A stretch of 64,000 nucleotides of DNA, taken from positions 68,375-132,374 of the forward strand of contig JBGSSJ010000014.1 in the NCBI GenBank assembly GCA_041737125.1, read 5' to 3'. The notes beneath the pieces are model-generated. The model saw only the letters and a program-made list of their open reading frames with translations. It had not been told where the DNA came from and did not search any database. Shown one piece after another: positions 10,714-44,668 of this stretch; position 1 is the first letter of the stretch, and each line of letters opens with the position of its first letter. A program made the translations under genes and the position numbers. This DNA is from Minisyncoccia bacterium (GTDB lineage: Bacteria > Patescibacteriota > Minisyncoccia > Phycocordibacterales > UBA9973).

Positions 10714-11442
10714 TTATTGTAATGCGTCTTGACCGTCGCGCATTCGGCTATCTGCTATGATATTTAGTATTTCATCTTCATTATCTGTGATTGTGTATAG
10801 GTTCATATCATTCGCACTGACGACTCCATACTTCTCTACGAGGACTTCTTTGATTATGTTCTGAATCGGAGTCCAGAATTCTACACCAAGGAGGATGATA
10901 GGTATTCTGCCAATTTTCTCTGTCTGTTGAAGTGTTAGCATTTCGAATAATTCATCAAGAGTACCGAATCCACCAGGGCAGAATACGCAAACTTCTGTTG
11001 TGTATGACATGGATACTTGGCGTGCAAAGAAGAAGTAGAAAGGTATCTCATCGGTTACGTACGGGTTCGTATGTTGCTCGTGGGGTAGGGTGATAGTCAG
11101 TCCTACAGATTTGCCTCCTGCTTCATAGGCCCCTCTGTTTGCAGCTTCCATGATGCCTCCTCCTCCACCAGAGAGTACTATGTAGCCTAGTTCCTTCGAT
11201 ATGCGGTAAGCAAGTGACCGAGCTTGCTTGTAAGCAGGGTGATCTTCATGAAGTCTTGCTGAGCCATAGAACGTGACAGAGGGGGTGAACTCACTTATCA
11301 TGTCTATTCCTTGGCGGAATTCTTCTTGAATCATGCAGAGCTTTGTCTCTTCTTTGCCTGCTCCATAGAGAGTCACACAGCCAGATTTTATATCATCGAT
11401 TGTTAATTTCTTCGGTCTATATACTTGTTTATTTGGTTCCAT
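10714..11442 (-). CDS. LOG-family (TIGR00730) Rossmann-fold nucleotide-binding protein / cytokinin riboside 5'-monophosphate phosphoribohydrolase-like
   Basis: GGGGGIMEAANRGAYEAGG and PGGFGTLDELFE motifs. Confidence 0.8.
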   Translation of the reverse strand: MEPNKQVYRPKKLTIDDIKSGCVTLYGAGKEETKLCMIQEEFRQGIDMISEFTPSVTFYGSARLHEDHPAYKQARSLAYRISKELGYIVLSGGGGGIMEAANRGAYEAGGKSVGLTITLPHEQHTNPYVTDEIPFYFFFARQVSMSYTTEVCVFCPGGFGTLDELFEMLTLQQTEKIGRIPIILLGVEFWTPIQNIIKEVLVEKYGVVSANDMNLYTITDNEDEILNIIADSRMRDGQDALQ

Positions 11443-11544
11443 ATCGTATGATTGTACCTTAAATTATTATTCTCAGCAATTTTGCATAAAAAAAGCCCAT
11501 TCGATTTGCATCGTAGGGCGGGGAATAAGGGTTAGCTTTGGATT

Positions 11545-11892
11545 TTAAGCTTTTCTAAGATCACGAATTGTACGTATTTTAGCCAGAACTATGGTAATTA
11601 TACATAGAACAGCGATAGTGCCGTTCATTATTGTTTCAGCCACAAATTTTTCTGTGTGACCTACGAAAACCATCCCTGTAAAAGCTAAAATCATAATAGC
11701 AAAATTAGTGATTCTTTCTTTCTCGAAAAGAATTCCTCTACCAGAGATAAAGATAACTGCTATATCCAGCAACCATCTAATAGCAGAAGAGTTGGAATGT
11801 GCATTATTCTTTTCTTGTTCGTGGAACAAGATAGCAATAGCTAATTCTAGGATTACCAATCCTAAAATTAAAAAATAATAATTTTTTTTCAT
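11545..11892 (-). CDS. small membrane protein, hypothetical
   Basis: Three hydrophobic helices; no motif recognised. Confidence 0.4.
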   Translation of the reverse strand: MKKNYYFLILGLVILELAIAILFHEQEKNNAHSNSSAIRWLLDIAVIFISGRGILFEKERITNFAIMILAFTGMVFVGHTEKFVAETIMNGTIAVLCIITIVLAKIRTIRDLRKA

Positions 11893-11983
11893 TTTTTCCC
11901 TAAACGGGTGTTTTATTTTTTTTCGAAATGTTCTTTGTCGGTTTTATTATAACCGATATGGCTCGCATTGTCAAGCAAAAAAA

Positions 11984-12066
11984 CTACACGTTTTTATGTT
12001 TTTTGTCGGCTTGTTTTTCGAGAATTTCTAGCTTTTTAGAGATTATTATCATTTCTTCTTTTATGT
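11984..12066 (-). pseudogene. ghost 3' gene fragment encoding ...IISKKLEILEKQADKKHKNV*, near-identical to the 3' end of the 15962..16411 gene
   Basis: About 60 bp matches 15986..16044 with roughly 5 mismatches. The minus-strand frame reproduces that gene's C-terminal peptide with its own stop, but there is no upstream coding body. Confidence 0.45.
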
Positions 12067-12117
12067 TTATGGTGGCCTAAAATATAATATTAATTCAAGT
12101 TATGATATAATTTTAAA

Positions 12118-15100
12118 ATGAAGTCTAAATATAACATTTTGTTGGGCCGTAAGCTTTTTTTAACAATAATAACACTATTGCTTTTCGTTCCATCCCTTAC
12201 TCATGCAGCACTCACGGACAACCTCATATCTTTCTGGAACTTAAATGAGAGCAGTGGTACTAGAAATGATGTAATAAGCACAAATCACCTAGCTGAGGTT
12301 GGTGGTGCTATCCCATCTGCAATAGGGGTAATAAATAACGCACCTGCTTTCTCTTCAAGTAAATATCTTTCTATTAACGATAATGCAGAACTCAGTACCG
12401 GTGACATTGATTTTACCGTTGCGGGATGGGTATACCTGGACTCTAAAGCTTCACCACAAGGTATTGTTTCTAAATATGACGGTTCATCAAACAGTGAATT
12501 TATGCTCTACTACGCATCCGGTACTGATAGACTTACCTTTTTAGTAACTTCCAGTGGGTCATCTGCAACTCAAGTGTCAGTTGCTGCTGAGGATCTCGGA
12601 TCTCCTGCGATCAACACATGGTACTACGTTGTGGGGTGGCATGACTCAGTAAATAATACGATTAATATTCAAGTTAATAACGGTGCTGTAAACAGTACCG
12701 CAACGACACTTGGAGTTTTTGATGGAACAGCTCCGTTTCTCATAGGTTCGTATTCTGGAGGGACAAGACCGCTGAGTGGTCGCGTCGACTCAGTAGGATT
12801 ATGGAAGCGAGTCTTAACAACAAATGAAAAAAATGAATTATATGCTAGCGGAGCAGGGTTTGAGCATCCATTTCTTCCTGCTACTGCTCCTGGAGCTCCG
12901 ACAGGCATAACATTTCAACCCAAAGATAATAGTGTTGCGCTACGATGGTTTGCTCCTGACAGTGGGAACAGTGCTATCACAGATTATATTATTCAATATA
13001 AACTAACAGCAAGTGGTTCATGGACAACCTTTAGTGATGGCACTAGTGTTTTGTCATCTACAACGGTTACTGGTCTTACAAATGAAAATAGTTATGATTT
13101 TAGAATCGCCGCTGTGAATAATGTTGGTACAGGTGAATACTCAACCCCAATGACGGGAACTATTCTTGCGACAACTCTCGATGATGATCTTATATCTTTT
13201 TGGAATTTAAATGAGACGAGTGGCGTTCGGTATGATGTGGTAAATTCAAATGATGTATCTCAGGTTGGTGGTACAATCTCATCAACAGTAGGAGTTATAG
13301 GCAATGCTCCCGCATTCTCTTCTGATAAATATCTTTCTATTAATGATAATGCAGAACTCAGTACCGGGAACATTGATTTTACCGTTGCGGGATGGGTGTA
13401 CCTGGACTCTAAAGCTTCACCACAAGGTATTGTTTCTAAATATGACGGAACAACGAACCGTGAATTTATGCTCTACTACGCATCCGGTACCGATAGACTT
13501 ACCTTTTTAGTAACCTCAGGAGGGTCAGTAGCAACACAGGTATTAGCTGCTGCAAATGATCTCGGATCTCCTGCGATCAACACATGGTACTACGTTGTGG
13601 GGTGGCATGACTCAGTAAATAATACGATTAATATTCAAGTTAATAATGGTGCTGTAAACAGTACCGCAACGACACTTGGAGTTTTTGATGGAACAGCTCC
13701 TTTTCGCATAGGTTCGTATTCTGGGACGACAGGACCACTTAATGGTCGCGTCGACTCAGTAGGATTATGGAAGCGAGTCTTAACAACACAGGAACGCACA
13801 GACCTTTATTTTGGTTCTTTAGGTGTTCAATACCCATTCGATCCTGATGCTTCAAATACAATTACTATTATAGGCCCGTTACAATATCAAACATTTCAGA
13901 GAAGTTCAGAAAGTAGCGGCTCAATACCCATCAGTGGTACCTATAGCGGAACCCCTACTACTATTGAAGCTAGTTGGAACGGGGGTGCGTATCAAGTAAT
14001 CGATAATTCATTGAGCAACGGGTTCTTTTCAGGTACACTTACAAGTCAAACCCCAGGACAGGGAACACTCACTGTGAGATTTACAAATGATACTGCAGTG
14101 ACTGCTACACAAACATACGTTGGACTCGGAGACGTGTATGTTGTTGCTGGTCAGTCAAATGCGATGGGACGTGGAGCATTCGCTCAACTATACACACACC
14201 CTACTCTAAAGGCATCAATTTTCAATCAAAATGATCAATGGCTAGAAGGGAATGATCCTACAGATATTGACACCAACGATGGATCTCCATGGCCACTTCT
14301 CTCAACATATATTATGGATGATCAATCCGTGCCAGTCGCATTTATTACTACCGCCACAGGGGGCACAGGTCTTGTTAGTCCAAACGACTGGGAAAAAGGT
14401 GGTGGAGGTGGAGAATATGAAAGAATGATTACACAAATTACAGATTCGGGCGTCAATAGCGTCAAAGCAGTTCTCTGGCACCAAGGAGAACAAGATGTAA
14501 ACAGCGGTGTATCACGGGCAACATATAATGCCGCAATAGATACACTTGCAGGTCATATGGCAGCTGATATTGTTGGTGCGCCTAAATTGGTGTTAGCACA
14601 AATAGGATACAAGACAACAAGTGGTGCAGTTCGTGACAATGTTGACGCAGTCAGATTAGCACAGTCAGACGCGTGGGATGATAATCCAGGAGTTGTCGCA
14701 GGCCCTATTCTCTATGACATTGGACCTCTCAGTGATGGTGTACACTTTAGTACAAACGAAGAAATAGAGGCTTTAGCAGAGCGATGGTGGGCGTCTCTAA
14801 ATAAAGAGTACTATGGTGGGACTGATGGGCGTGGTCCAATACTTACTGCCGCTGAACACAACGAAGCAAAATCAGAGATCACACTTACATTTTCAGATGA
14901 TTCTTTGCCGATTACCCCGTCAACAGGCTTAAGCGGGTTTAGGGTTGAGGAAGATACAGTGAGTGTTCCTATTAGTAGTGTCACACGAATTGCTAATAAT
15001 AAATTGAGAATAGTGCTTACCTCTGCAGCAACAGGAGCTTTGACTGTATCGCTCGGGAGTTTTAATGACGGTGCTGGTGTGACGATTCCTAAAGACTCTA

Positions 15101-15864
15101 GCGCATACGCACTTCCTGCTGAGATTTTTGTTGACTATCCAACAACACTTGCTGTTGATACCGGAGCGCCAACTATAGATTCTGTAACTTCAAATAAAAC
15201 TACAGGAACATATGGCGTAGGAGAAGTCATTGATATTGATGTGACGTTTTCTGAAGCCGTGACATCTGCGTCTGTAACTGTTACCTTAGAAACAGGGGAT
15301 ATTGATCGCACTTGTACGTTTTCAATATCTAATTCTTCTACGGGTTCGTGTGACTATACTGTTCAGGTAGGGGACACAAGTGCTGTGCTCACTGTAGCTA
15401 GTATCTCAGGGTCTATTGTTGATGAGGCAAATAATGCAATGACAGATTTTGAACCAACTATCAATCTCTTTAATAACCCCTTACTCGTGATTGATACGAC
15501 TACCTCATTTCGTTCTGCATATGGTTCGTATTCTAAAACATCTCCATTCTTTATCCAGAATCAAGTTATATCAAATTCTCCATTACAAAATATACAGAAA
15601 TATATATTTACAAGAAATTTTAAAATTATAATACCTAGAATAAAAGGGGAGGATGTGAAGGTGTTACAAGAATTCTTAAACTTTAAAGGCTATACTATAC
15701 CTCAGACTGCATATGAGAAAGCAAATAATATTCCATCCTCTGATGGCGTGTTTGGTCCTTTGACTAAGAAAGCCGTTATTTCCTTCCAGCTGGCCAATGG
15801 CCTAGTGCCAGATGGTATCGTAGGACCGAAGACTTTGGCGAAAATAAAGGAGTTAGCTCATTGA
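12118..15864 (+). CDS. large secreted multidomain protein: signal peptide, two LamG/ConA-like lectin repeats, FN3 domain, SGNH/sialate-O-acetylesterase-like (DUF303-like) domain, Ig-like domains, C-terminal peptidoglycan-binding (PG_binding_1-like) domain
   Basis: N-terminal hydrophobic leader; FN3-like APGAPTGITFQP...YDFRIAAVNNVGTGEYS; esterase-like GLGDVYVVAGQSNAMGRG and VLWHQGEQD; C-terminal LQEFLNFKGY...VFGPLTKKAVISFQ...PDGIVGPKTL. Confidence 0.8.
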   Translation: MKSKYNILLGRKLFLTIITLLLFVPSLTHAALTDNLISFWNLNESSGTRNDVISTNHLAEVGGAIPSAIGVINNAPAFSSSKYLSINDNAELSTGDIDFTVAGWVYLDSKASPQGIVSKYDGSSNSEFMLYYASGTDRLTFLVTSSGSSATQVSVAAEDLGSPAINTWYYVVGWHDSVNNTINIQVNNGAVNSTATTLGVFDGTAPFLIGSYSGGTRPLSGRVDSVGLWKRVLTTNEKNELYASGAGFEHPFLPATAPGAPTGITFQPKDNSVALRWFAPDSGNSAITDYIIQYKLTASGSWTTFSDGTSVLSSTTVTGLTNENSYDFRIAAVNNVGTGEYSTPMTGTILATTLDDDLISFWNLNETSGVRYDVVNSNDVSQVGGTISSTVGVIGNAPAFSSDKYLSINDNAELSTGNIDFTVAGWVYLDSKASPQGIVSKYDGTTNREFMLYYASGTDRLTFLVTSGGSVATQVLAAANDLGSPAINTWYYVVGWHDSVNNTINIQVNNGAVNSTATTLGVFDGTAPFRIGSYSGTTGPLNGRVDSVGLWKRVLTTQERTDLYFGSLGVQYPFDPDASNTITIIGPLQYQTFQRSSESSGSIPISGTYSGTPTTIEASWNGGAYQVIDNSLSNGFFSGTLTSQTPGQGTLTVRFTNDTAVTATQTYVGLGDVYVVAGQSNAMGRGAFAQLYTHPTLKASIFNQNDQWLEGNDPTDIDTNDGSPWPLLSTYIMDDQSVPVAFITTATGGTGLVSPNDWEKGGGGGEYERMITQITDSGVNSVKAVLWHQGEQDVNSGVSRATYNAAIDTLAGHMAADIVGAPKLVLAQIGYKTTSGAVRDNVDAVRLAQSDAWDDNPGVVAGPILYDIGPLSDGVHFSTNEEIEALAERWWASLNKEYYGGTDGRGPILTAAEHNEAKSEITLTFSDDSLPITPSTGLSGFRVEEDTVSVPISSVTRIANNKLRIVLTSAATGALTVSLGSFNDGAGVTIPKDSSAYALPAEIFVDYPTTLAVDTGAPTIDSVTSNKTTGTYGVGEVIDIDVTFSEAVTSASVTVTLETGDIDRTCTFSISNSSTGSCDYTVQVGDTSAVLTVASISGSIVDEANNAMTDFEPTINLFNNPLLVIDTTTSFRSAYGSYSKTSPFFIQNQVISNSPLQNIQKYIFTRNFKIIIPRIKGEDVKVLQEFLNFKGYTIPQTAYEKANNIPSSDGVFGPLTKKAVISFQLANGLVPDGIVGPKTLAKIKELAH
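12220..13800 (+). repeat. intragenic tandem duplication (about 620-bp unit at roughly 12220-12840 and 13177-13797) encoding the two lectin-like repeats
   Basis: Long stretches are nearly identical at nucleotide level between the two units (for example around 12380-12830 versus 13337-13790). Confidence 0.8.
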
Positions 15865-15961
15865 TTGATATGACTCTTATTAAATTTTAAAATTATTATA
15901 AATTCATTAATTTGATTTATTTTTTCGGCCTTCCTTCAAAAACCTTATACGAATCATAAAA

Positions 15962-16411
15962 CTATATATTTTTGTGGTTTTTATAAGCTTGTTTTTCGAG
16001 AATTTCGAGTTTTTTAGAGATTATTATCAGTTCTTCTTTTATGTCTGAAATAGCTGATACTTCACTTTTGAGTTCTGCGTCTGTTTTCTCTGTAAGCTTC
16101 CTTTCGCCTTTTAGACCTGCAAGTATAAGCTCATTACCAATGAAGCTTGAAGTGAAAGCTCCTGTTATATAGAGTGTGAAGGCCCCCACTACGAATGATA
16201 CTGGTCCATCCCACCAGTATGAATCTTTTAAGCTCAGCGAATGACTTTGCGCCAAATAGCCTATTGTGTCATGCATAACGTCCACAGTGTGCCAGACTCC
16301 TCTCCAGAAGAGCACAATACCTACTCCGACGATAAGTGCGTAGAGGGTAGGGTGGTGACTAAGGTGGCTTTGTATTTTGTGTTTTAATTCTTTCATCTCT
16401 CGATTATACAA
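15962..16411 (-). CDS. membrane protein with coiled-coil C-terminus, hypothetical
   Basis: Two TM helices followed by a charged helical tail; its 3' end is duplicated at 12008..12066. Confidence 0.5.
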   Translation of the reverse strand: MYNREMKELKHKIQSHLSHHPTLYALIVGVGIVLFWRGVWHTVDVMHDTIGYLAQSHSLSLKDSYWWDGPVSFVVGAFTLYITGAFTSSFIGNELILAGLKGERKLTEKTDAELKSEVSAISDIKEELIIISKKLEILEKQAYKNHKNI

Positions 16412-16423
16412 TATTTATAATTT

Positions 16424-17170
16424 TTAGAAAAATAGCATCTTTACTGCGGTTATGAGTATGACTATACCGAGCAGTGGTTTCAAAAATGCATCGCCTTTCT
16501 TTACTGCATAGCTTGTGCCCATATAGCCTCCGATTACCATACCCAAGAATAGTATTATAGCCACACGAAAATTTACAAAATCTGACTTTATAAATATAAT
16601 TACACTTCCAATAGTAGCAAGAATATGAGGAATTCGAGTAACAGCTTTTCCTTGTAGTATGGTATAGCCATATCCTCGCATTTTAATATAAGTTTCTGTT
16701 ATCCCTGACCCAGGAGAGAAGAATCCAGCCCATACACGAGCGAAGAAGAATGCTATGTGCGATACGACCCGCTTCCTGCCTACAGCTCTATCCTCTTTTA
16801 TGCCTAGATTTTTATTTATAAATAATAGCGGGATAATAATTAGAAGTATAACTCCTATTAATTTATTCAAAATTTCTGGATTAATAGATACTACCAAGCT
16901 CGCCCCAATTGCTGTAGCAGGCACAGCTATCAGTGTTAGGATTATTACATCCCTCCTTTTTATCCCTAGGTTTTTAATCTGAGCGAATTTAATTATGTTA
17001 CCAATTTTAAATCCTATATCACCAAAGTTGTAAGAGCCTAGGGCAATTTGTGTAGGTAGCCCTAGTGCTAGAAGTAGAGGCATAGCAACAAGCCCAGCTC
17101 CACCAGATACACTACCGACAAAGGCGCTAATAATACCGATTATGAAGAATAGGATATCGTTTAAGAACAT
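16424..17170 (-). CDS. TSUP-family (TauE/SafE, DUF81) membrane transporter
   Basis: Gly-rich repeated TM motifs GGAGLVAMPLLLALGLP. Confidence 0.7.
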   Translation of the reverse strand: MFLNDILFFIIGIISAFVGSVSGGAGLVAMPLLLALGLPTQIALGSYNFGDIGFKIGNIIKFAQIKNLGIKRRDVIILTLIAVPATAIGASLVVSINPEILNKLIGVILLIIIPLLFINKNLGIKEDRAVGRKRVVSHIAFFFARVWAGFFSPGSGITETYIKMRGYGYTILQGKAVTRIPHILATIGSVIIFIKSDFVNFRVAIILFLGMVIGGYMGTSYAVKKGDAFLKPLLGIVILITAVKMLFF

Positions 17171-17539
17171 CTATCTTGTTTGATTTAGTTTATGGAAAGA
17201 ATAATAAGACACAAAGAGTACGATAAGTGCGATGACAGGGAACAGTAAGTATACAGTGAATCCAGTCACTACCCACATGCTTATGAATGCTGCTATGAAG
17301 TCAAAAGTAAATCCAGCATATGCCCACTCTTTTATAGTTTTAGGAATATTAGGAATGATCAGCGCTATTCCTCCGAGGACTTTTGCGACTACGAGCATGA
17401 CTGCAAAGTAAGCCGGATATCCGAAGGATACTATCCCACTAACTGCTGCACCATTAAAATAGGCAACCAATTCAAGTACTACTTGTGTAATGAATATTAA
17501 TGAAGTCGCAACCCAGAACATGATTTTGTATTTTTTCAT
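17171..17539 (-). CDS. DoxX-family membrane protein
   Basis: Four TM helices and a GGIALIIP motif. Confidence 0.5.
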   Translation of the reverse strand: MKKYKIMFWVATSLIFITQVVLELVAYFNGAAVSGIVSFGYPAYFAVMLVVAKVLGGIALIIPNIPKTIKEWAYAGFTFDFIAAFISMWVVTGFTVYLLFPVIALIVLFVSYYSFHKLNQTR

Positions 17540-17563
17540 ATACTTTTATTATACATAATTTTT

Positions 17564-18178
17564 TTAATTTAATATTTTCTTCAGAGCTTCTATTACAGGT
17601 CCCATTTCTGTTATTTCATCTTCTTGTGTGTGCTGAATAGCTGGTTTACCTGTCGTCTTCGAGTAATACAGACATCGAACTGGCATATGTATATGTGGTG
17701 TACCAAATTCTTGGTTTGTTAGGACTACCTCTCTCCTAGATTCGATTTTCTTGACTTCACCGTTTGGATGTACCAATGCGAAAGCTTCTATCCAGGCAGC
17801 ATCCACTTGTCCTCCATGCCTAGTGGCAACTCCTTTCCAGAAGTTTAATAACTGCTTAGATATTTCTTCAGGGGATAAATTTTGTTCATCAATGCCTTCT
17901 AGGGCTTTTCTTTTGGGTACATCAGTGAAGCCATCACCTTCTACATAGAACCCCGTGTCGTTCGATATAATAGGGAAGTCTACTTTACCCAGGTAAGCTT
18001 GAGCTTTCAGAATAGCATTGTCCATTAAAGTTGTTCCATTCTCCTCTGTATCTAGAGTCTCGATTCCTAGTTCATCGGGGGAGAATAATTCAATATTAGG
18101 ATCAATATAATTTATCAATTTCCTAAATCTTTCTATTTTGCCTCCGTTATTAGTTGCAAGTAATACTTTCATCTTCAT
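17564..18178 (-). CDS. non-canonical purine NTP pyrophosphatase (RdgB/Ham1/ITPase family)-like
   Basis: N-terminal VLLATNNGGKIERF motif. Confidence 0.5.
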   Translation of the reverse strand: MKMKVLLATNNGGKIERFRKLINYIDPNIELFSPDELGIETLDTEENGTTLMDNAILKAQAYLGKVDFPIISNDTGFYVEGDGFTDVPKRKALEGIDEQNLSPEEISKQLLNFWKGVATRHGGQVDAAWIEAFALVHPNGEVKKIESRREVVLTNQEFGTPHIHMPVRCLYYSKTTGKPAIQHTQEDEITEMGPVIEALKKILN

Positions 18179-18205
18179 ATTGTAGCATTTTTATAAATTT
18201 CTAAT

Positions 18206-18240
18206 AAAATTAAAAAGAGCAGGCTTTAACCTTGCTCTTT
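18206..18240 (-). terminator. rho-independent terminator after the SIMPL-like gene
   Basis: AAAAGAGCAGG-ctttaac-CTTGCTCTTTTT hairpin with a T-run. Confidence 0.55.
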
Positions 18241-18264
18241 TTAATGATATTTTCTGAAAACTTC

Positions 18265-18948
18265 CTACTTTAGCAAGAATCTAAGTGTAGAAACAAGACG
18301 AATCTTCTTGTATTCAGGAGAGCCTGGATCTTTGTCTGTGATGTCGAATACTCCCTGATTACCCCGAGTGACACTACCAACAGATGAAGATGAATTCTCT
18401 GCGAATTGGTCAGCTGTAGCACGTGCGTTCTTGATGGCCTCGGCTAGCATTTCAGGCTTGATACTGTTTAAGTCAGAGAACTCGAAGGATATACTGTTCT
18501 GACTGAGTACAACACCTTTCTTCACTAATAGCAAAGTTTCATTTGATACTGATTTTGCTAGATCTACTTTTTTTGTATAGACAGAGACTTGGTTGTTCGA
18601 ATTGTATCTGAATGCTGCATCTCTGTATGTATCTTGGTAGATGTTCACTGGAGCTACATTTATCTCACTGTCTTCGAAACCTTTCTCTTTGAGGAAAGTT
18701 TTGATTGTGACTATATTCTTCTCTATACCTCCGTAGAGTGAATCTACATCATTGGTCTTCACATCAAAGCTCATAGACCAGATGGCAGTATCTGCCTTTA
18801 CTATCCTCTCTGATAATCCCTTCACTTCTACATACGCACCCTGATCAGAGAAGTCATGCGCTGATATATAGAATGCTCCTGAGAGCAAAATTGCGAGTAC
18901 TAATATCGCCCCACCTATAAAGTTGTAATTGTTTTTTGTATTTTCCAT
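18265..18948 (-). CDS. SIMPL-domain (DUF541)-like secreted or membrane-anchored protein
   Basis: N-terminal TM segment; VEVKGLSERIVKADTAIWSMSF pattern typical of SIMPL. Confidence 0.4.
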   Translation of the reverse strand: MENTKNNYNFIGGAILVLAILLSGAFYISAHDFSDQGAYVEVKGLSERIVKADTAIWSMSFDVKTNDVDSLYGGIEKNIVTIKTFLKEKGFEDSEINVAPVNIYQDTYRDAAFRYNSNNQVSVYTKKVDLAKSVSNETLLLVKKGVVLSQNSISFEFSDLNSIKPEMLAEAIKNARATADQFAENSSSSVGSVTRGNQGVFDITDKDPGSPEYKKIRLVSTLRFLLK

Positions 18949-36700: not shown

Positions 36701-37618
36701 TTATTCGTTTATCTTAAAAGAGACAATCGCAAGCAGTAGCTCAAAGTCATTCATTGAAATAATAAATGGAGCTTCTTTTCCTTTCTTGAATAGATACAAA
36801 AATCCATCTCTAATATCCAAAGAAGATATTTTATCGTAAGGAATACTAAGATGTTTATTAAGACCAATGTACCCAAGATTATCTGTGGTTAGATATAGAG
36901 TACCTGCATCATCAGTCATCATCACATTCACTTTTTGTGGATTAATTTTGATGTTACCAACTCGATACCTTAATCCCTTGGCGATCTTTATAGATGCAGA
37001 AAAGCCACTATAGTTGTAACTCTTCGTTATTGATTTGTTTTTAACAATAAATGCCTTATTTACACAGTGCAGTTTTTCACCTGCCTTTAAATTGACATTC
37101 AGATTTGGAACATCAATGGTCGGTAGCTTTCCCTCGTCTATTAAATAAAGCGTATGGTATTTATTAAAATCACTTTGATTATACGCAAGATTATCTGTAG
37201 AGAGATTCAGATCAGAATAAATTTTAACAAGCTCTTTTCTCTCGGCTTCTGTAATTCTTGAGTCGTCCGTAATTTTATCAAAGAAAGTTTTGAATCCTAT
37301 GAGATTATATTTTTCGACATCCTTGTCAGACAAATTATGATCTTTTTTAATTCCCTCTAAAACTACCTTGTCGTCTTCTGACAGGTTTCCATCAATCAGT
37401 AATTCTTTGATTTTTTCTGAATATAAACTTAACGCTTTTCTTTTAGGTGATCTAAATACTTTTGTAAATAGAAAATAAACTGCACCTATGGCGATACCTA
37501 TGTAGAGGAGATCTTTAAATAAACTGAAATTGACGATGATTATCGTGAGCACTATAAGAGTAAGTATTATCTGCTTGGCAAGAGATAAATCCTTAAACTT
37601 TTGTAAAAGATTTTTCAT
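36701..37618 (-). CDS. membrane-anchored hypothetical protein
   Basis: Two N-terminal TM helices and an unknown C-terminal domain. Confidence 0.4.
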   Translation of the reverse strand: MKNLLQKFKDLSLAKQIILTLIVLTIIIVNFSLFKDLLYIGIAIGAVYFLFTKVFRSPKRKALSLYSEKIKELLIDGNLSEDDKVVLEGIKKDHNLSDKDVEKYNLIGFKTFFDKITDDSRITEAERKELVKIYSDLNLSTDNLAYNQSDFNKYHTLYLIDEGKLPTIDVPNLNVNLKAGEKLHCVNKAFIVKNKSITKSYNYSGFSASIKIAKGLRYRVGNIKINPQKVNVMMTDDAGTLYLTTDNLGYIGLNKHLSIPYDKISSLDIRDGFLYLFKKGKEAPFIISMNDFELLLAIVSFKINE

Positions 37619-37977
37619 TAACTTTGGACGGTTTTTCTAATAATGAACTGGGCAGGTAGCAAAAAACTCCTAGCCAGATCCGACATACCCCGTGAGGTAT
37701 GCCCACATCAGTTTCCCGATGTGACCGTCCAAAGTAGACCCCTGACTAGGAGATCTTTGCTTTGGACGGATTTGCAACCATATCCTTTGGCGAACCAAAG
37801 GGGTTAGGTCGACTGATATTCAGTTGTAAATGAATAATAACATTTTCAGAGTTATTACTCTAGATTGATTGTATCGCTGATACGTGGTTTTGCTAAGGAT
37901 AGTATCGCGAGTATGCGACGTATTTCTTAGTCTGCATAGTCTTAGCAAAATAGATGATCTGCGTCATTAATTAATAT
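37619..37977. promoter_or_regulatory. palindrome-rich non-coding region upstream of the second serine recombinase (candidate attachment site and promoter)
   Basis: CTTTGGACGG at 37621 and 37758 with its inverse CCGTCCAAAG at 37725; CTCCTAG / CTAGGAG inverted pair; TTGCTAAG..CTTAGCAA inverted pair. Confidence 0.35.
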
Positions 37978-39300
37978 ATGGAAACGCAGTACATAAGTAA
38001 CCTTGGTGTTAAGACGGAGGTAATTCAAGCGAAAGTAAGATATGTCTTATACGCCAGAAAATCAACTGAATCTGATGAGAAGCAAGCCCTTTCGATTGAG
38101 TCTCAAGTAAAGGAGATGTTAACTATCGCAGATCGAGACGGTTTAACAGTCGTCGATATTAGGCGTGAATCTCATTCTGCAAAAGAGTCAGGGCAACGAC
38201 CAGTATTTAAAGAATTACTTGAGGATATTCGGCGAGGTAGATATACAGGAATTCTGACCTGGGCACCTGATCGTCTTTCTCGAAATGCCGGTGATCTTGG
38301 TTCAGTTGTTGACCTTATGGACGAAAACAAGCTTATAGAGATTAGGACATATGGACAACACTTTAAGAATTCACCAAACGAGAAGTTTCTTTTAATGATT
38401 TTATGCTCACAAGCAAAACTCGAGAACGATAATAAAAGTATCAATGTAAAACGAGGATTACGGACAAGATGTGAAATGGGGCTTCGCCCAGGTCCTGCAA
38501 TATTTGGATATTTAAACGAAAAGCATGTAGATAAAAAATGTGAAGTTATTATCGACACAGAGCGAGCACCTGTAGTTAAAAAGATATTTGAAAAAGTAGC
38601 ATATGAAAAATGGAGTGGGAGAAAAATATATCACTGGTTAAAGTTTGAGTTAAATCTAAAAACTCGTAACGGAAACAAAGGACTTACCCTCAGCAACATC
38701 TATATGATTTTAGAAAACCCCTTTTACTACGGGGTTTTTGAATATCCCAAGAAAAGTGGAAATTTTTATAAAGGTAGACACGAACCAATCATCACAAAAG
38801 AACTGTTTGATACTGTGCAAGAACAAGTTAAATCACAAACTCTTCGTACTCAAGAGCCAAAAGAATTCGCTTTTATTAAAATGATGAATTGTGGTCTTTG
38901 TGGATCAGGAATTACCGCAGAAGAAAAATTTAAGAAACTTAAAGACGGCAGCATAAACAGACATGTGTATTATGGCTGTGCCAAATCTAAGGATAGATTT
39001 TGTAAGTGTGGGTATATTAATGAGAATGATTTGATTCAACAATTTGAAAAACTAATTGATCAAATTGATATCAATGAAATTGGAATGAAAGAAAAAATTA
39101 AATACGAAGTTGAGCGAATTAAAAGATTTAACCATTCTGTATTAAATATAAAACAACAAATACAGATAAAAGATGTGGATGTAAGGGACTACGCCAAGTT
39201 TATTTTGAAAGATAGCTCGATTGAAGACAAGCGAGAATTACTCATGTGCTTTAAAAACAACATTTTGTTAGATAATAAAACTATTAGGTTGAGTTATTAA
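37978..39300 (+). CDS. large serine recombinase (paralog of 1948..3591)
   Basis: YVLYARKSTESDEKQALSIESQ...WAPDRLSRN catalytic domain and a Cys cluster CGLCGS...CAKSKDRFCKCG. Confidence 0.85.
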   Translation: METQYISNLGVKTEVIQAKVRYVLYARKSTESDEKQALSIESQVKEMLTIADRDGLTVVDIRRESHSAKESGQRPVFKELLEDIRRGRYTGILTWAPDRLSRNAGDLGSVVDLMDENKLIEIRTYGQHFKNSPNEKFLLMILCSQAKLENDNKSINVKRGLRTRCEMGLRPGPAIFGYLNEKHVDKKCEVIIDTERAPVVKKIFEKVAYEKWSGRKIYHWLKFELNLKTRNGNKGLTLSNIYMILENPFYYGVFEYPKKSGNFYKGRHEPIITKELFDTVQEQVKSQTLRTQEPKEFAFIKMMNCGLCGSGITAEEKFKKLKDGSINRHVYYGCAKSKDRFCKCGYINENDLIQQFEKLIDQIDINEIGMKEKIKYEVERIKRFNHSVLNIKQQIQIKDVDVRDYAKFILKDSSIEDKRELLMCFKNNILLDNKTIRLSY

Positions 39301-39379
39301 CAGTGTATTATCATAAAGCTTAGACTTTCGGTTTTATTTCGGATATAATTGAATTGTAGCAAATTAGATTTCTAAACAA

Positions 39380-40957
39380 ATGACCACACTAACCAAAAAA
39401 CAAAAAGAAGTATTTGATTATATAAGCACATATATCGCTGAAAATGGTATTTCTCCAACCATTGATCAGATTCGTAAAAAATTAAAGCTGAAGGCAGTCT
39501 CTACTGTTCATGAACATATCGCTTCCCTAAGAGAAAAAGGATACCTTTCAAAGTCAGATAGTACAGATCGAGGGATGACACCAAAAAAAGAAATCAAATC
39601 GGTAATTGAGATTCCTATAGTTGGTAAAATTGCTGCTGGTCAACCAATTGAGGCATTAGAAGATCATCAGGCTACTATTTCAATAATAAATCCCTCTATT
39701 AAGAGTGCTAAGGATCATTATGCTTTACGAGTAGTTGGTGACAGTATGATCGATGAAGGTATTTTTAATGGAGATATTGTGGTTATTAAAAAACAATCCG
39801 TAGCAGAGAATGGACAAACTGTTGTCGCGATTATTGACGATAACCAAGCAACCCTCAAAAAATTATATAAGGAGGATAAAAAAATAAGGCTACAGCCTGG
39901 AAATCCTGACATGAAGCCTTTGTTTAGAGTAGATGTTGAGATCAGAGGTGTTGTTGTTCAAGTTATAAGAAATATCGATAATGAAGCAGAAGTGTTACCT
40001 ACAAAGAAACAGAAGCATGGTTTTAGAACAATAGACTTATTTGCTGGAGTAGGAGGCATCCGAAAAGGATTTGAAAATGCAGGTTTTAAAACAGTCTTTG
40101 CAAATGATTTTGATGCCCCTTGTAAGCAGACATATGATTTGAATTTTAAAGATTCTAAATTAATAATTGAAGACATTAGAAAAATTGGTATCAATGATTT
40201 ACCAGAGTTTGACTTTATACTCGGAGGTTTTCCTTGTCAGGCATTTTCTATAGCAGGCTATCGCAAAGGCTTTGATGATCCTAAAAATAGAGGTAACCTG
40301 TTTTTTGATATTGCGAAGATTATTGAAGCAAGAAAACCAGCAGGCTTCATGTTGGAAAATGTTAAAAATCTAAAAAGCCATGATGATGGAAATACTTTTA
40401 GAATTATCGAAGAGACCCTCAGAGATCTTGGTTACCATGTAAAATCCAAAGTACTAAACACTATGGAATATGGAAATGTTCCCCAAAATCGTGAGAGAAT
40501 TTATATTGTAGGATTTAGAAATAAAGATTACTTTGATAGGTTTAACTTTCCAGAACCAGTAAAACTCACAAAAAAAATAACAGATCTCTTAGAGAAAAAT
40601 GTTCCTGAAAAATACTATTACAATGGCAAACCTCTTTTTGATAAATTAAAGAAAGACGTAAAAGAAGAAGGTAAGGTATACCAATGGCGAAGGCAATATG
40701 TTCGCGAAAATAAAAGTGGGGTTTGCCCTACTCTCACAGCAAATATGGGAATGGGTGGACACAATGTACCAATTATCAAAGATAAGAAAGGTATCAGAAA
40801 ACTTACGCCATTAGAGTGCTTTAGAATACAAGGATTTCCTGCAACTTATATTTTACCCAAGATCGCAGACTCTTCTTTGTATAAACAAGCTGGCAATTCA
40901 GTTAGTGTCCCTGTTATTGAAGCCGTTGCTAAAAAAATGATGGAGGCAATGAAGTAG
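39380..40957 (+). CDS. fusion of a full-length LexA repressor (wHTH plus S24 autopeptidase) to a cytosine-5 DNA methyltransferase
   Basis: LexA part: LTKKQKEVFDYI, cleavage site KIAAGQP, VGDSM Ser, TLKKL Lys. MTase part: motif I DLFAGVGG, motif IV GFPCQAFS (PCQ), ENV, C-terminal QAGNSVSVPV. Confidence 0.85.
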   Translation: MTTLTKKQKEVFDYISTYIAENGISPTIDQIRKKLKLKAVSTVHEHIASLREKGYLSKSDSTDRGMTPKKEIKSVIEIPIVGKIAAGQPIEALEDHQATISIINPSIKSAKDHYALRVVGDSMIDEGIFNGDIVVIKKQSVAENGQTVVAIIDDNQATLKKLYKEDKKIRLQPGNPDMKPLFRVDVEIRGVVVQVIRNIDNEAEVLPTKKQKHGFRTIDLFAGVGGIRKGFENAGFKTVFANDFDAPCKQTYDLNFKDSKLIIEDIRKIGINDLPEFDFILGGFPCQAFSIAGYRKGFDDPKNRGNLFFDIAKIIEARKPAGFMLENVKNLKSHDDGNTFRIIEETLRDLGYHVKSKVLNTMEYGNVPQNRERIYIVGFRNKDYFDRFNFPEPVKLTKKITDLLEKNVPEKYYYNGKPLFDKLKKDVKEEGKVYQWRRQYVRENKSGVCPTLTANMGMGGHNVPIIKDKKGIRKLTPLECFRIQGFPATYILPKIADSSLYKQAGNSVSVPVIEAVAKKMMEAMK

Positions 40958-40959
40958 GG

Positions 40960-41523
40960 TTACCAAACCTTTACATCAGTCGCGATTGGCTTAAGGTCAT
41001 ATTTTGCAATCACATCTTTTTTGATACAAAATCTAGGTCGTCTCTTTTCTTCTTGTTGCTGTTTTAGCGTTTGAAGTTTATTGACCGGGTTATCATAGAT
41101 AAAATTATTAGGTATTTTATATACCTTAAAAGTTCCGTCGACTCTGCCGTCAGCATAAAAATCTAAAAAATATAAATCGTCCCACTTAGATTTTGGACCA
41201 AAAGAAGTAAGATCATTTTCTACACTACAAGCTTTGATTTGTTCTGCTCTCTTTGTTTTAGTATTAAACGTATCAAATGATGTATTAGAAAGTTTTTTAG
41301 CACTTATTAATCTTGTGGATCCAGACCATAAACAAAAAGCAACCTCAGATAATCCTTCAGGAAAATTTGGTTCACGCGATTTATAATCACGCATTCCCAT
41401 CTTTAATCCTTTCCATAGATCAAATAGTGTTTTCCATTTTTTTCCATCAGAAGAATCAAACTCCATTAGATCAACGGTGCAGTCTTCATCAAAAATAGTA
41501 GTGTTTACTTTAACTAAGTTCAT
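40960..41523 (-). CDS. putative type II restriction endonuclease partner of the C5-MTase (small, possibly Bsp6I-like)
   Basis: Convergent with only a 3-bp gap to the C5-MTase gene; 187 aa with acidic/Lys clusters compatible with a PD-(D/E)xK enzyme. The call rests on context only. Confidence 0.35.
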   Translation of the reverse strand: MNLVKVNTTIFDEDCTVDLMEFDSSDGKKWKTLFDLWKGLKMGMRDYKSREPNFPEGLSEVAFCLWSGSTRLISAKKLSNTSFDTFNTKTKRAEQIKACSVENDLTSFGPKSKWDDLYFLDFYADGRVDGTFKVYKIPNNFIYDNPVNKLQTLKQQQEEKRRPRFCIKKDVIAKYDLKPIATDVKVW

Positions 41524-41628
41524 GATGTATTTATACTATATTTTTATCAATTTCTCAAACAAAAACACCTTTTTAATTAAAGGTGTTTTTGTTTTAAAAC
41601 TAGCTATCTTTGAGCTAGCTCTTGTTTG

Positions 41629-41728
41629 CTGCCAGACCTGGACTCGAACCAAGGAAGTGTCCTACCCGCCCGCCATTGCAAGCATGAGCTTGCTCAGGCG
41701 TTGCGGGCGGGCCATTAGACGATCACTG
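41629..41728 (-). pseudogene. degenerate tRNA-Gln paralog: T-arm and acceptor 3' strand intact, anticodon arm deleted, 47-nt GC-rich palindrome inserted in the D-loop, 5' acceptor mutated
   Basis: Aligns base-for-base with tRNA-Gln at 41743..41813 except for the missing anticodon arm and the inserted CCCGCCCGCC...GCGGGCGGG hairpin (41665..41711). Confidence 0.45.
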
Positions 41729-41742
41729 ATTTCTGCACAAAG

Positions 41743-41813
41743 CTGCCAGACCTGGACTCGAACCAAGATAACCTCCTCCAGAGGGAGGTGTCCTACCATT
41801 AGACGATCTGGCA
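41743..41813 (-). tRNA. tRNA-Gln (anticodon CTG)
   Basis: Acceptor TGCCAGA/TCTGGCA, D-arm GTCT-AATGGTA-GGAC, anticodon arm CCTCC-CTCTGGA-GGAGG, T-arm CTTGG-TTCGAGT-CCAGG. Confidence 0.8.
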
Positions 41814-41828
41814 GCTTTGTGCATAAAT

Positions 41829-42065
41829 TTATATTCTCTCTTTTAAAAATCTTCTCCCAAAACCTGTTTTAAAATACTTTTCTCTTTTCAATGCTTTTTC
41901 TTTACTATTACAAGCTTCATAATATAAAATTTCTAAAGGTCTTCTATTCTCAGTAGCTGGTACTTTGCCTGCAGAATGAAGATTAAATCTATTCTTCAGG
42001 TCTTCGGTATAACCTACATATAAATCACCATCCTTTAAACTTTTTAATACATATGTGTAATACAT
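41829..42065 (-). CDS. GIY-YIG nuclease superfamily small protein (YhbQ/UPF0213-like)
   Basis: YTYVLKS...GDLYVGYTEDLKNRFNLHSAG GIY-YIG motif and C-terminal REKYFKTGFGRRFL. Confidence 0.75.
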   Translation of the reverse strand: MYYTYVLKSLKDGDLYVGYTEDLKNRFNLHSAGKVPATENRRPLEILYYEACNSKEKALKREKYFKTGFGRRFLKERI

Positions 42066-42073
42066 AAATTAAA

Positions 42074-42136
42074 GTCCTACCCGCCCGCCATCGCAAGTAT
42101 GAGCTTGCTCAGGCGTTGCGGGCGGGCTATTAGACG
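42074..42136. repeat. second copy of the GC-rich ~47-nt palindromic element with tRNA D-arm-like flanks (gtcctac...attagacga)
   Basis: 42079..42125 matches 41665..41711 with 3 substitutions; the flanks gtcctac and c(t/c)attagacga are conserved. Confidence 0.55.
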
Positions 42137-42162
42137 AGCCGGCAATGCGATCGGCAAATACT

Positions 42163-42213
42163 GCTCAATGTCGATATATTACCACAAAAAAGCTAAAAAA
42201 CAATTAAAAATAT
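42163..42213. repeat. ~50-bp direct repeat, copy 1 (CTCAATGTCGATATATTACCACAAAA...TAAAAAACAATTAAAAATA); copy 2 at 43586..43636
   Basis: Two near-identical copies bracket the 42264..43523 gene. Confidence 0.7.
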
Positions 42214-42263: not shown

Positions 42264-43523
42264 TTATTCTTGTTTAGGTTCGTAAATTACAGTACCTTTT
42301 GCTATCTTATTATTTTTTTCATCTTCTTCATCTACGGTATTAAATAAAATGTTAAATTCTAAATTATCACCAGTAGAATTTTTTTGAATATCCACAGACT
42401 TTGGCTCTCCCTCTGTTGGCTTATCAGATGCAATCACTTTTACATTATAAACCTTGGACATTTCCTCTGCGAGTCCACCCTCAACACCTGTAAGACAACT
42501 CGATAATACTAGTTCCGCATTATTTTCAAATAATTCTTTGACTCTCTGTATACCTTTACCACTTAAATCTTTTTGCTGGAGCATGCGGTTATCACCCTCT
42601 CTATCGCCAAATCCTACAACATCTGTATTGCCATGAACATGCATATACATGAACTTTATTTTTTGATTATATTTATCTCGAAGATATAGTAGTCGTTTTG
42701 CTAAATCAATTTTTCCATTTGACTCAATAATTCTTATCATAAAGGAATTTTCTTCCACTTTCTCTCTGATACCTTCTGATTGATTCGATTGGGAGAAGGA
42801 ACCATTCCAATCCATAACTGCCTGAAAAAATAAACCATAAGGACCTTTCGCATCTCTCTCCTCATACTGTTTTTTAAGTTCATGTATTGTATATCTCCCA
42901 AAACCACGAATACCAAAATTATCAAATAAATACTTTACAGATCCTTTTTCAAAATTTTGAAGAAATCTTATTTTTCTAAATGTTTCATATATGTACCAGT
43001 CAGCTATTTCGTCATCCTTAACTGTAAGCCAGCTCTGAATAAGATCTTCTGCTTCGTGTTCAGAAAAACCAAACTGTTTTAATATGTAATCAGCCAAATA
43101 CTCTTTATACTCTAAATCTTTTTCTTTTGAAGTATATAATTCTCTCTTTCTTAAAATATCGCGAGCTAGTGTATGATCAATATCATTTGATATCATATAC
43201 AATCTTGCAGTTATTTCTTTATTTGAATCAGTAAGCAAATCAAGTTTATCAATAAGTTCAAAATAAAACTCGTATTCTCGGGATATACTAAAATGTAATT
43301 CTCCTGTTTCTTCTCTTTCTATATATTTTCGAATTTCACTTTCAACTACCGGTTGAATTTTTATAAAATTTTCTTTTATTTCATTAAACTTTCTGGTTCC
43401 AGGTGAAGATTTTAAAATATCTTTTGCTAATACCTCTAGTTTAGACTTTATATCTTCAGGAGTTTTCATCTCTTCAAGATCTATGCTTCCTGTTTTTATT
43501 ATATTAGGGTTAGGTTCTTTCAT
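42264..43523 (-). CDS. hypothetical 419-aa protein bracketed by 50-bp direct repeats; possible His/Cys-dyad hydrolase in its C-terminal half
   Basis: Long ORF; HVHGNTDVVGFGD and LVLSSCLTGVEGG segments about 45 residues apart (weak caspase-like His...Cys spacing); no firm motif. Confidence 0.45.
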   Translation of the reverse strand: MKEPNPNIIKTGSIDLEEMKTPEDIKSKLEVLAKDILKSSPGTRKFNEIKENFIKIQPVVESEIRKYIEREETGELHFSISREYEFYFELIDKLDLLTDSNKEITARLYMISNDIDHTLARDILRKRELYTSKEKDLEYKEYLADYILKQFGFSEHEAEDLIQSWLTVKDDEIADWYIYETFRKIRFLQNFEKGSVKYLFDNFGIRGFGRYTIHELKKQYEERDAKGPYGLFFQAVMDWNGSFSQSNQSEGIREKVEENSFMIRIIESNGKIDLAKRLLYLRDKYNQKIKFMYMHVHGNTDVVGFGDREGDNRMLQQKDLSGKGIQRVKELFENNAELVLSSCLTGVEGGLAEEMSKVYNVKVIASDKPTEGEPKSVDIQKNSTGDNLEFNILFNTVDEEDEKNNKIAKGTVIYEPKQE

Positions 43524-43585
43524 GTCTCTTTACTTATAGATTTATTACTAAAGTTTTAATATGATATATTGTTTCTCACAAGAAT

Positions 43586-43636
43586 CCTCAATGTCGATAT
43601 ATTACCACAAAATTAGTAAAAAACAATTTAAAAATA
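43586..43636. repeat. ~50-bp direct repeat, copy 2; also carries promoter-like elements for the CDF transporter gene
   Basis: Matches 42163..42213; followed by an extended -10 TGCTATAAT at 43641..43649. Confidence 0.7.
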
Positions 43637-43654: not shown

Positions 43655-44668
43655 ATGGGTGACATGGCAACAAAAACTCATGGGAAGAAATCAGTTATAG
43701 CAGCATTGCTCGGGAATACATTCGTCACTATCATCAAAGGAACAATATTCTTCATTACAGGCTCGGCTAGTATGTTCGCGGAGAGCGTGCACTCATTGGC
43801 AGACACTCTCAACCAATCACTCCTCCTCATCGGCCTTAACCGTTCGAAAAGACCAGCTGACCATATACGAGGTTATGGCTATGGTATCGAGAGGTTCTTC
43901 TGGTCACTCATATCTGCTTGCGGAATATTATTCATCGGTGCAGGGGTGACTATATACCACTCGATAGATTCACTGATGCATGTAGATAAAGAATTACATC
44001 CTTTCAGTTACCTCAGTATGATAGTGCTATTCGTCGCTCTTATTATCGAAGGTATTACTCTATGGCTTGCAATTAAAGAATTGAAAAAGGGTAGAAAGTT
44101 TTCGAAAGAAATATTCCGAGATGCAGATCCTGTAATACTTGCTATAGTATATGAAGACGGTGCCGCAGTGCTCGGTGTGCTCATAGCTTTGCTTGCACAA
44201 TGGCTCGCTTACCTTACTGGCAATGTGGTGTATGATGCAATAGGAGGAATAGTCGTAGGACTTATACTTGGCTTCCTCGCAGTAATACTGATAATTAAGA
44301 ACCATCAGTATATAATAGGTAAGGCCTTGGATGAGGAGATAACAGAGGAGATAGTAGAATTCCTAGGCCAAGATCCTTGTATAGAACGAATACTCGAATT
44401 CAAATCAGTAGCAGTCGATGTCGGTAAGTATAGAATATTCGCAACTGTTGAGTGGAACGGCTCGCCCCTCTATGAAGAGATATACGAAGCAGGGGATTTG
44501 CAAGAAGAGTGGATAAATATTAAAGACGATTTTGGTGAATTTGCTAAACTAATGTTCAAGACGACAGATCGCATACCACGCCTCGTCGGTAGCCACATAG
44601 ATGAGATAGAGAAAGAGATAGTGAATAAATTCCCACAAGTAGCTTATGTAGATATAGAAATTAATTAA
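43655..44668 (+). CDS. cation diffusion facilitator (CDF) family divalent-cation efflux transporter
   Basis: SASMFAESVHSLADTLNQ signature; six TM helices plus a cytoplasmic C-terminal domain. Confidence 0.8.
   Translation: MGDMATKTHGKKSVIAALLGNTFVTIIKGTIFFITGSASMFAESVHSLADTLNQSLLLIGLNRSKRPADHIRGYGYGIERFFWSLISACGILFIGAGVTIYHSIDSLMHVDKELHPFSYLSMIVLFVALIIEGITLWLAIKELKKGRKFSKEIFRDADPVILAIVYEDGAAVLGVLIALLAQWLAYLTGNVVYDAIGGIVVGLILGFLAVILIIKNHQYIIGKALDEEITEEIVEFLGQDPCIERILEFKSVAVDVGKYRIFATVEWNGSPLYEEIYEAGDLQEEWINIKDDFGEFAKLMFKTTDRIPRLVGSHIDEIEKEIVNKFPQVAYVDIEIN

Follow-up and report, generated by a model that had tools for sequence, protein, structure and literature searches.

A displaced gene tail beside a large surface protein gene in a Patescibacteria genome as a possible scar of homology-anchored recombination

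When the prophage e14 integrates in icd, the element brings with it a replacement 3′ end for its target and leaves the icd 3′ end behind as a pseudogene. C-terminal displacement in the Rhs, CDI (contact-dependent inhibition of growth) and T6SS (type VI secretion system) loci, with the orphan 3′ ends and orphan immunity genes that accompany it, was reportedly set out by Jackson and colleagues in 2009. Homology-facilitated illegitimate recombination (HFIR) of linear DNA is likewise said to have been described in 2002, by de Vries and Wackernagel and by Prudhomme and colleagues. Here we examine a locus that resembles each of these systems in part, located in 64,000 nucleotides of a Minisyncoccia bacterium genome of the phylum Patescibacteriota (assembly GCA_041737125.1, contig JBGSSJ010000014.1, positions 68,375 to 132,374; hereafter, the window). 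In this locus, a gene for a large secreted protein, termed BIG, lies between two copies of the 3′ end of a small membrane protein gene, termed p144. We favor, with about even confidence, the explanation that the arrangement is the scar of homology-anchored recombination with DNA of a related lineage, either by a Campbell-type single crossover or by HFIR.

Such outcomes have documented counterparts. Single crossovers of a circle have produced anchor duplications of 109–950 bp, and HFIR has been described in competent bacteria (PMC3240628). In T6SS and Rhs arrays, displaced 3′ ends are kept beside the displaced downstream genes (PMC5361080). Among the Saccharibacteria, natural competence has been demonstrated (PMC10633639).

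The central features of the locus, in window coordinates, are the following.

11980–12066, minus strand: the ghost, or upstream repeat copy, comprising the final 26 codons and stop codon (11984–11986) of a p144-type gene, with no gene body

12118–15864, plus strand: BIG, encoding a secreted protein of 1248 residues that comprises a signal peptide, two Laminin_G_3 domains, fn3, a SASA carbohydrate esterase and a C-terminal PG_binding_1 domain

15958–16044, minus strand: downstream repeat copy, which is the true p144 3′ end (stop codon 15962–15964)

15962–16396, minus strand: p144, a 144-residue membrane protein conserved in Patescibacteria

A repeat search of the window delimits the two direct copies at 87 nucleotides each, with 87% identity and a spacing of 3978 nucleotides. 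A core of 59 nucleotides (12008–12066 versus 15986–16044) contains 4 mismatches, and a run of 20 nucleotides (12009–12028 and 15987–16006) is identical. The downstream copy retrieves the upstream one from the 64 kb by blastn at E = 2.7e-21, the p144 protein retrieves it by tblastn at E = 1.3e-8, and neither search yields a third copy of p144 sequence within the window. Together, the repeats reconstitute the 3′ end of p144, and their boundaries differ: on the stop side, homology ceases 4 nucleotides beyond the stop codon; on the gene-body side, it breaks off at 12066/12067, with at most weak similarity as far as 12078. There the upstream copy is cut at an abrupt non-homologous joint, and the downstream copy runs on into the intact body of p144. 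The ghost occupies the divergent intergenic region between BIG and a short open reading frame (ORF), p115. It lacks a gene body because only 51 nucleotides of unique sequence separate the end of homology from the BIG ATG at 12118. Read on the minus strand, the ghost ends in ...IKEEMIIISKKLEILEKQADKKHKNV and the working p144 C-terminus in ...IKEELIIISKKLEILEKQAYKNHKNI, each followed by a stop codon, and the two stop codons are in register.

These results bear out much of a preliminary description of the window. The repeat of some 60 bp that it had reported, with about 5 mismatches, is real; the downstream copy is indeed the coding end of the membrane protein gene, continuing into the gene body; the upstream copy is a p144-type tail and stop with nothing behind it; and the intervening gene does encode the lectin, esterase and peptidoglycan (PG)-binding domains that it had been credited with. 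The length of 149 residues that it had given for the membrane protein holds for the ORF 15962–16411, which opens with a TTG. The ATG at 16396 is more likely the true start, and the 144 residues that it gives match the length in the public protein collection.

Simple misassembly is unlikely because both junctions occur in separate Logan contigs of run SRR28170474. One (L083) is identical to the window over 10978–12462, across the upstream junction, and the other (L001) over 14976–18344, across the downstream junction; moreover, each repeat copy has its own flanks on both sides, and an assembly artefact was rejected on these grounds. Neither a recombinase nor a transposase was found among the ORFs or in a domain search of the flanked 3.9 kb, and the repeat search returned no inverted repeat at the segment boundaries. 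As with the target-site duplication of a transposon, direct repeats surround the segment; in contrast to it, they are 87 nucleotides long and imperfect rather than short and identical. With neither terminal inverted repeats nor a transposase, a transposon or insertion sequence was dismissed. A structured RNA or regulatory element was also considered for the repeat and set aside: there is no Rfam match at E ≤ 1, and neither strand folds stably or better than shuffled sequence (z-scores of −0.8 to +0.1).

The manner in which the two tails differ is informative about their origin. Their 11 differences comprise 6.5 synonymous and 4.5 non-synonymous changes over approximately 14 synonymous and 64 non-synonymous sites, corresponding to 0.72 synonymous (dS) and 0.074 non-synonymous (dN) substitutions per site. 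For orthologues in the window and in the contig of the closest p144 relative (L082), the values are dS 1.0 and dN 0.061 for p144, and dS 0.63 and dN 0.042 for the adjoining TauE-family permease gene. The tails therefore differ as two functional alleles do, which points to a diverged allele as the source of the ghost, be it the displaced original or an import. We simulated an in situ duplication after which the truncated copy evolves neutrally and selection continues to act on the working copy. The observed synonymous excess was reached in 1–5% of runs, and in 0.6–3.6% when the frame and stop of the ghost were also required to remain intact. A recent local duplicate under neutral decay fits these data poorly, and the earlier view of the ghost as a recent copy of its neighbor's own 3′ end gives way to that of a diverged allele. 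Pairwise differences among the ghost, the working tail and the L082 tail are 11, 14 and 17 of 81 nucleotides. The ghost and the L082 tail share D and V where the working tail has Y and I, and the working tail and L082 share L and N where the ghost has M and K; indeed, each pair shares some states that are absent from the third. The three thus appear to be comparably diverged alleles, and the ghost may well be the tail of a diverged, formerly functional p144 allele that was truncated recently. Because the numbers are small, this is suggestive, not proof.

Beyond the repeats, the flanks and the start of BIG carry the following features.

10714–11442, minus strand: LOG (lysine-decarboxylase-like) gene, the conserved left flank

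11545–11892, minus strand: p115, an ORFan of 115 residues that contains four hydrophobic segments and immediately follows the ghost downstream

11946–11974, minus strand: sigma-70 consensus promoter, TTGACA-17-TATAAT (12/12), which faces p115 and begins 6 nucleotides past the repeat end

12103–12111, plus strand: extended −10 box, TGATATAAT, 6 nucleotides before the BIG ATG and inside the 51-nucleotide unique stretch

16424–17170, minus strand: TauE-family permease gene, the conserved right flank, co-linear with p144 in L082

What the locus shows, and what an explanation must account for, is a direct repeat with one truncated copy, a single gene as the content, a divergence of coding type between the tails, and a segment devoid of recombinase and inverted ends. 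The layout reads, from left to right, p115 pointing left, the ghost tail, the joint, the promoter and BIG pointing right, and intact p144 pointing left. Under the recombination reading, the donor would have been a related lineage in which a BIG-type gene stood tail-to-tail with p144. By a linear route, a fragment carrying the BIG promoter, BIG, and the convergent p144 tail with some of its body would have crossed over homologously inside the resident p144 at its right end, and its BIG-promoter end would have been joined illegitimately about 80 nucleotides above the resident stop codon. The product would be the resident tail, now the ghost, followed by BIG and by the donor tail fused to the resident body, the working tail having arrived with BIG. 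By a circular route, a single Campbell-type crossover of a circle would give the same product. Either route would duplicate the tail, keep p144 intact, and strand the old tail beside the old downstream gene, p115. Which way the DNA was transferred, how the donor was arranged and how the DNA came in are inferences. An anchor combined with an illegitimate joint would produce what is seen at the two boundaries, namely, homology that stops with the stop codon at one end and breaks off at a sudden non-homologous joint at the opposite end.

Compared with the described systems, the locus comes closest to Campbell-type or HFIR events in that foreign DNA is attached next to one homologous anchor, the p144 tail, which is duplicated as direct repeats with one copy at a non-homologous joint, and no element-encoded enzyme is needed. 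It differs in being a natural event in uncultured Patescibacteria, with an anchor of about 80 nucleotides that is about 13% diverged. The displacement in Rhs, CDI and T6SS loci is paralleled by a module inserted beside a conserved gene and by the retention of an old 3′ end together with its downstream gene, here the ghost and p115. However, p144 does not belong to the polymorphic toxins; its tail is conserved throughout the family instead of varying; the cargo is a convergent surface protein rather than a toxin tip with an immunity gene; and there is a single orphan rather than an array. As in e14 and icd, the target gene remains whole, its displaced tail sits at the insert's opposite end, and the tails differ mainly synonymously; unlike e14, the repeats enclose no integrase, phage or island gene, and the cargo is one 3.7-kb gene.

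Because no element-encoded enzyme is involved, the locus is to be seen as a scar, not as a mobile element. It is of a known kind in an understudied phylum, represents neither a mobile element nor a new mechanism, and settles no open question. If homology-anchored recombination is the right explanation, the scar would be the footprint of an uncultured, host-dependent Patescibacteria lineage that gained or swapped a large cell-surface protein solely by host recombination at a short conserved anchor, without the machinery of a mobile element. Such anchor-based acquisition fits the natural competence reported for cultivated relatives. It also carries a practical warning, namely, that orphan gene tails of this kind would be recombination scars and not the ends of mobile elements or small genes.

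BIG is the sole credible gene between the repeats by both the ORF list and the domain search. Since the extended −10 box sits in the unique 51 nucleotides between the ghost and BIG, the insert appears to carry its own promoter, possibly giving rise to a leaderless BIG mRNA. The gene contains a recent internal duplication of 606 nucleotides that covers the LamG domain (12223–12828 versus 13189–13794; 87.5% nucleotide identity, dS 0.31, dN 0.084). An anomalous composition was sought as a sign of transfer, and BIG proved ordinary for its genome, at 41.8% GC and a third-position GC (GC3) of 0.29. With no recombinase, inverted ends or unusual composition, the notion of the BIG segment as a mobile element is not supported. 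The cluster to which BIG belongs is represented by a 47-residue fragment, so that the search with BIG did not recover BIG itself. Its homologues, at 40–47% identity, occupy unrelated contexts in other Patescibacteria, which marks BIG as a relocating accessory gene. One of them, in another Patescibacteria metagenome-assembled genome (MAG), encodes 1401 residues at 45% identity and lies in a ribosomal protein operon, directly after the L5 gene (L084, 4695–8900).

The p144 protein has two hydrophobic segments and a conserved C-terminal amphipathic helix. Its family numbers 574 homologues of roughly 140–150 residues in Patescibacteria and Paceibacteria MAGs, and the tail is conserved across 29 aligned homologues. 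No relative was found in Pfam, NCBIfam or the PDB, and no toxin domain. A scan of 185,579 species genomes yielded 80 p144 loci, the best 67% identical. The 80 loci show one p144 copy each and no ghost. In all 78 related loci of other genomes that carry p144 (L002–L082; 20 kb each), the gene is likewise single, and a second tail copy, as expected of a recurrent insertion site, was seen in none. Gene order is scrambled among the species-genome loci, and in none of them does BIG, p115 or a ghost adjoin p144. Neighbors vary alike on both sides of the gene, with 47 clusters in 78 loci downstream and 51 in 74 upstream; a 3′ flank acting as an insertion hotspot was therefore rejected, being no more variable than the 5′ flank across the family.

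The closest p144 relative (P0002, 88% amino acid identity), and the sole close one in the protein collection, resides on L082, a contig of 2.6 kb that ends 250 nucleotides past p144. It shares the TauE–p144 pair with the window at 85% nucleotide identity over 1239 nucleotides. A convergent gene lies 30 nucleotides beyond the p144 stop, and its last 82 residues form a PG-binding domain that can be aligned with the C-terminus of BIG from end to end (34% identity). A p144 gene standing tail-to-tail with a PG-binding surface protein gene thus exists in a second lineage, with a very different allele, and this is the donor-type layout that the recombination reading proposes. The sequences beyond TauE in the two genomes (L082 1–1112 versus window 17171–18178) are unrelated, as is the sequence on the other side of the shared pair, and TauE–p144 is thus a two-gene module in different surroundings even at this distance.

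On the left, p115 has no homologue among 5.8 billion protein clusters and was discarded as a tracer for relatives. A metagenome scan based on LOG recovered the relatives L095 (87% identity), L087 and L088, in which the sequence upstream of LOG is different and contains no p115, ghost or BIG. In most relatives, the direct upstream neighbor of LOG is tRNA-Gln(CTG) with its conserved promoter, and neither p115 nor the ghost nor BIG is found there. The whole stretch between LOG and p144 (11443–15961) is thus lineage-specific and lies at a synteny breakpoint. In related genomes, p144 lies a few kilobases from LOG and tRNA-Gln and points the opposite way; in the window, the adjacency of LOG and tRNA-Gln is broken, and p144 and tRNA-Gln are both flipped relative to LOG. 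The tRNA-Gln gene is at 41742–41813, two copies of its promoter are at 42157–42210 and 43580–43633, and the promoter abuts a cation-efflux gene at 43655. The simplest reading of these data is an apparent inversion of about 30 kb (window about 11.5–43.6 kb) relative to the order typified by L002, with the ghost and BIG at its left junction.

Several points weigh against recombination with a related donor. In the relatives scanned, neither an empty site (LOG–p115–p144 without BIG) nor a donor was found; the hybrid p144 that would join the body to the ghost tail, looked up exactly as two sequences, is absent from 15 billion proteins; and the sliding identity to L082 along TauE–p144 shows no break that would mark a crossover. 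With its ordinary composition, BIG is compatible with a related donor alone and supplies no separate evidence of transfer. The signal of selection on the ghost comes from 11 substitutions in 78 nucleotides. The L082 layout might mean that the adjacency of p144 and a BIG-type gene predates the split, in which case the ghost and p115 would be the later arrival. Finally, because the locus sits at the junction of the apparent inversion, the ghost could be debris of a larger rearrangement rather than of an insertion specific to BIG.

Each rival explanation meets specific evidence against it, yet each keeps some probability, because no empty site or donor was found. One is a local tandem duplication of BIG and part of p144, followed by deletions that left only the tail. 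Direct repeats around a segment are its usual product, and the recent duplication inside BIG, at a similar nucleotide identity (87.5%), lends it some appeal. Yet it requires at least two further deletions, with the end of one falling precisely on the stop codon; neutral decay is expected of a truncated copy, but the differences are mostly synonymous with frame and stop intact (simulated P of 0.6–5%); and dS is 0.72 between the tails, over twice the 0.31 of the internal duplication. We regard it as unlikely. Were the ghost instead what remains of a long-lived second p144 paralogue, with two functional copies once flanking BIG and the upstream one recently lost to a deletion or to the incoming BIG promoter region, coding-type divergence would follow as readily as from the allele model. 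This possibility is decidedly unlikely, given that p144 is single-copy, with no second partial copy, in all 78 related loci, and that the window holds no other copy. The same absence bears on the preliminary description, which had attributed the segment to insertion or duplication by recombination within the p144 gene family: recombination at the p144 tail stands as the best explanation, but a family of paralogues is not in evidence, as the gene has none in the 64-kb window and is single-copy elsewhere.

The involvement of the apparent inversion deserves separate consideration, as the ghost and p115 may be junction debris from the point where the end of p144 met LOG. Relatives carry tRNA-Gln and its promoter upstream of LOG, in the window it is p144 that abuts the LOG side, and the other junction likewise has a lineage-specific gene between imperfect direct repeats of 54 nucleotides. 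Inversion by staggered breaks or inverted repeats, however, leaves inverted copies, one at each end, rather than direct copies together at one end, and a 13% divergence of coding type is unexpected for junction filler; we consider such a by-product quite unlikely. Large serine recombinases use short sites, cross over at 2 bp, and do not generate repeats of 80 nucleotides. This is a difficulty for site-specific integration at the p144 3′ end by an integrase acting in trans, which would resemble e14 in icd or a cis-mobilizable island, with the repeats as attL and attR. The geometry is that of e14 and icd: a tail brought by the element preserves the target gene, and the tail that it displaced is found at the far end; the repeats share an identical run of 20 nucleotides; and a large serine recombinase gene lies 22 kb away (37978–39300). 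The flanked 3.9 kb nevertheless has no integrase, and no insertion with such repeats occurs at the 78 other p144 loci, which renders this explanation highly improbable. It is barely credible that the ghost has been kept for a function of its own, as a 22-residue micro-ORF (MIIISKKLEILEKQADKKHKNV) or as a DNA or RNA signal. Its frame and stop are intact, its substitutions are biased toward synonymous ones, and the micro-ORF ATG is newly made by a ghost-specific CTG>ATG change. Against these stand the lack of a convincing ribosome-binding site or promoter for the micro-ORF, the lack of an Rfam match or of folding above that of shuffled sequence on either strand, and the absence of the fragment from all related loci.

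A second repeat-flanked gene is found at the right end of the apparent inversion. The direct repeat of 54 nucleotides there (85% identity) consists of the two copies of the tRNA-Gln promoter, a clade-wide element of the form TTGTTT-17-TGTGGTAATAT on the minus strand that lies between LOG and tRNA-Gln in relatives. Between the copies is an ORF on the minus strand (42264–43523) of 419 residues and 30.6% GC, with no Pfam or NCBIfam match. One promoter copy faces a tRNA-like fragment and the other faces the 419-residue gene, a pattern like that of BIG and the ghost. The two loci could be seen as instances of integrase-free, homology-flanked cassettes, in which BIG and the 419-residue ORFan, each between imperfect duplicates of conserved host sequence (54–87 nucleotides), would loop out as circles by host recombination, pass from one related Patescibacteria lineage to another by natural transformation and re-enter at conserved sequence. 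We regard this generalization as a long shot. If true, it would constitute a general route of accessory gene exchange in the reduced genomes of Patescibacteria, with reversible loss that restores an intact p144.

The tRNA-Gln region contains further elements. Two tRNA-Gln-like fragments (41620–41727 and 42074–42150) share a repeat (41659–41722 and 42074–42137) at 95% identity, and each is interrupted in the D-arm region by a GC-rich hairpin of 47 nucleotides (CCCGCCCGC...GCGGGCGGG). They flank the true tRNA-Gln and a 78-residue GIY-YIG ORF (41829–42065), and the same hairpin adjoins a GIY-YIG ORF in L011 (9804–9885; 97% identity). The hairpin fragments match no Rfam family and may represent an element of the homing endonuclease type. 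Adjoining this region is a low-GC island (36701–41523), which contains the large serine recombinase gene mentioned above, a Bsp6I-like restriction endonuclease gene (40960–41523), and a gene for an unusual 525-residue fusion of a LexA DNA-binding domain, an S24 peptidase and a C5 cytosine methyltransferase (39380–40957).

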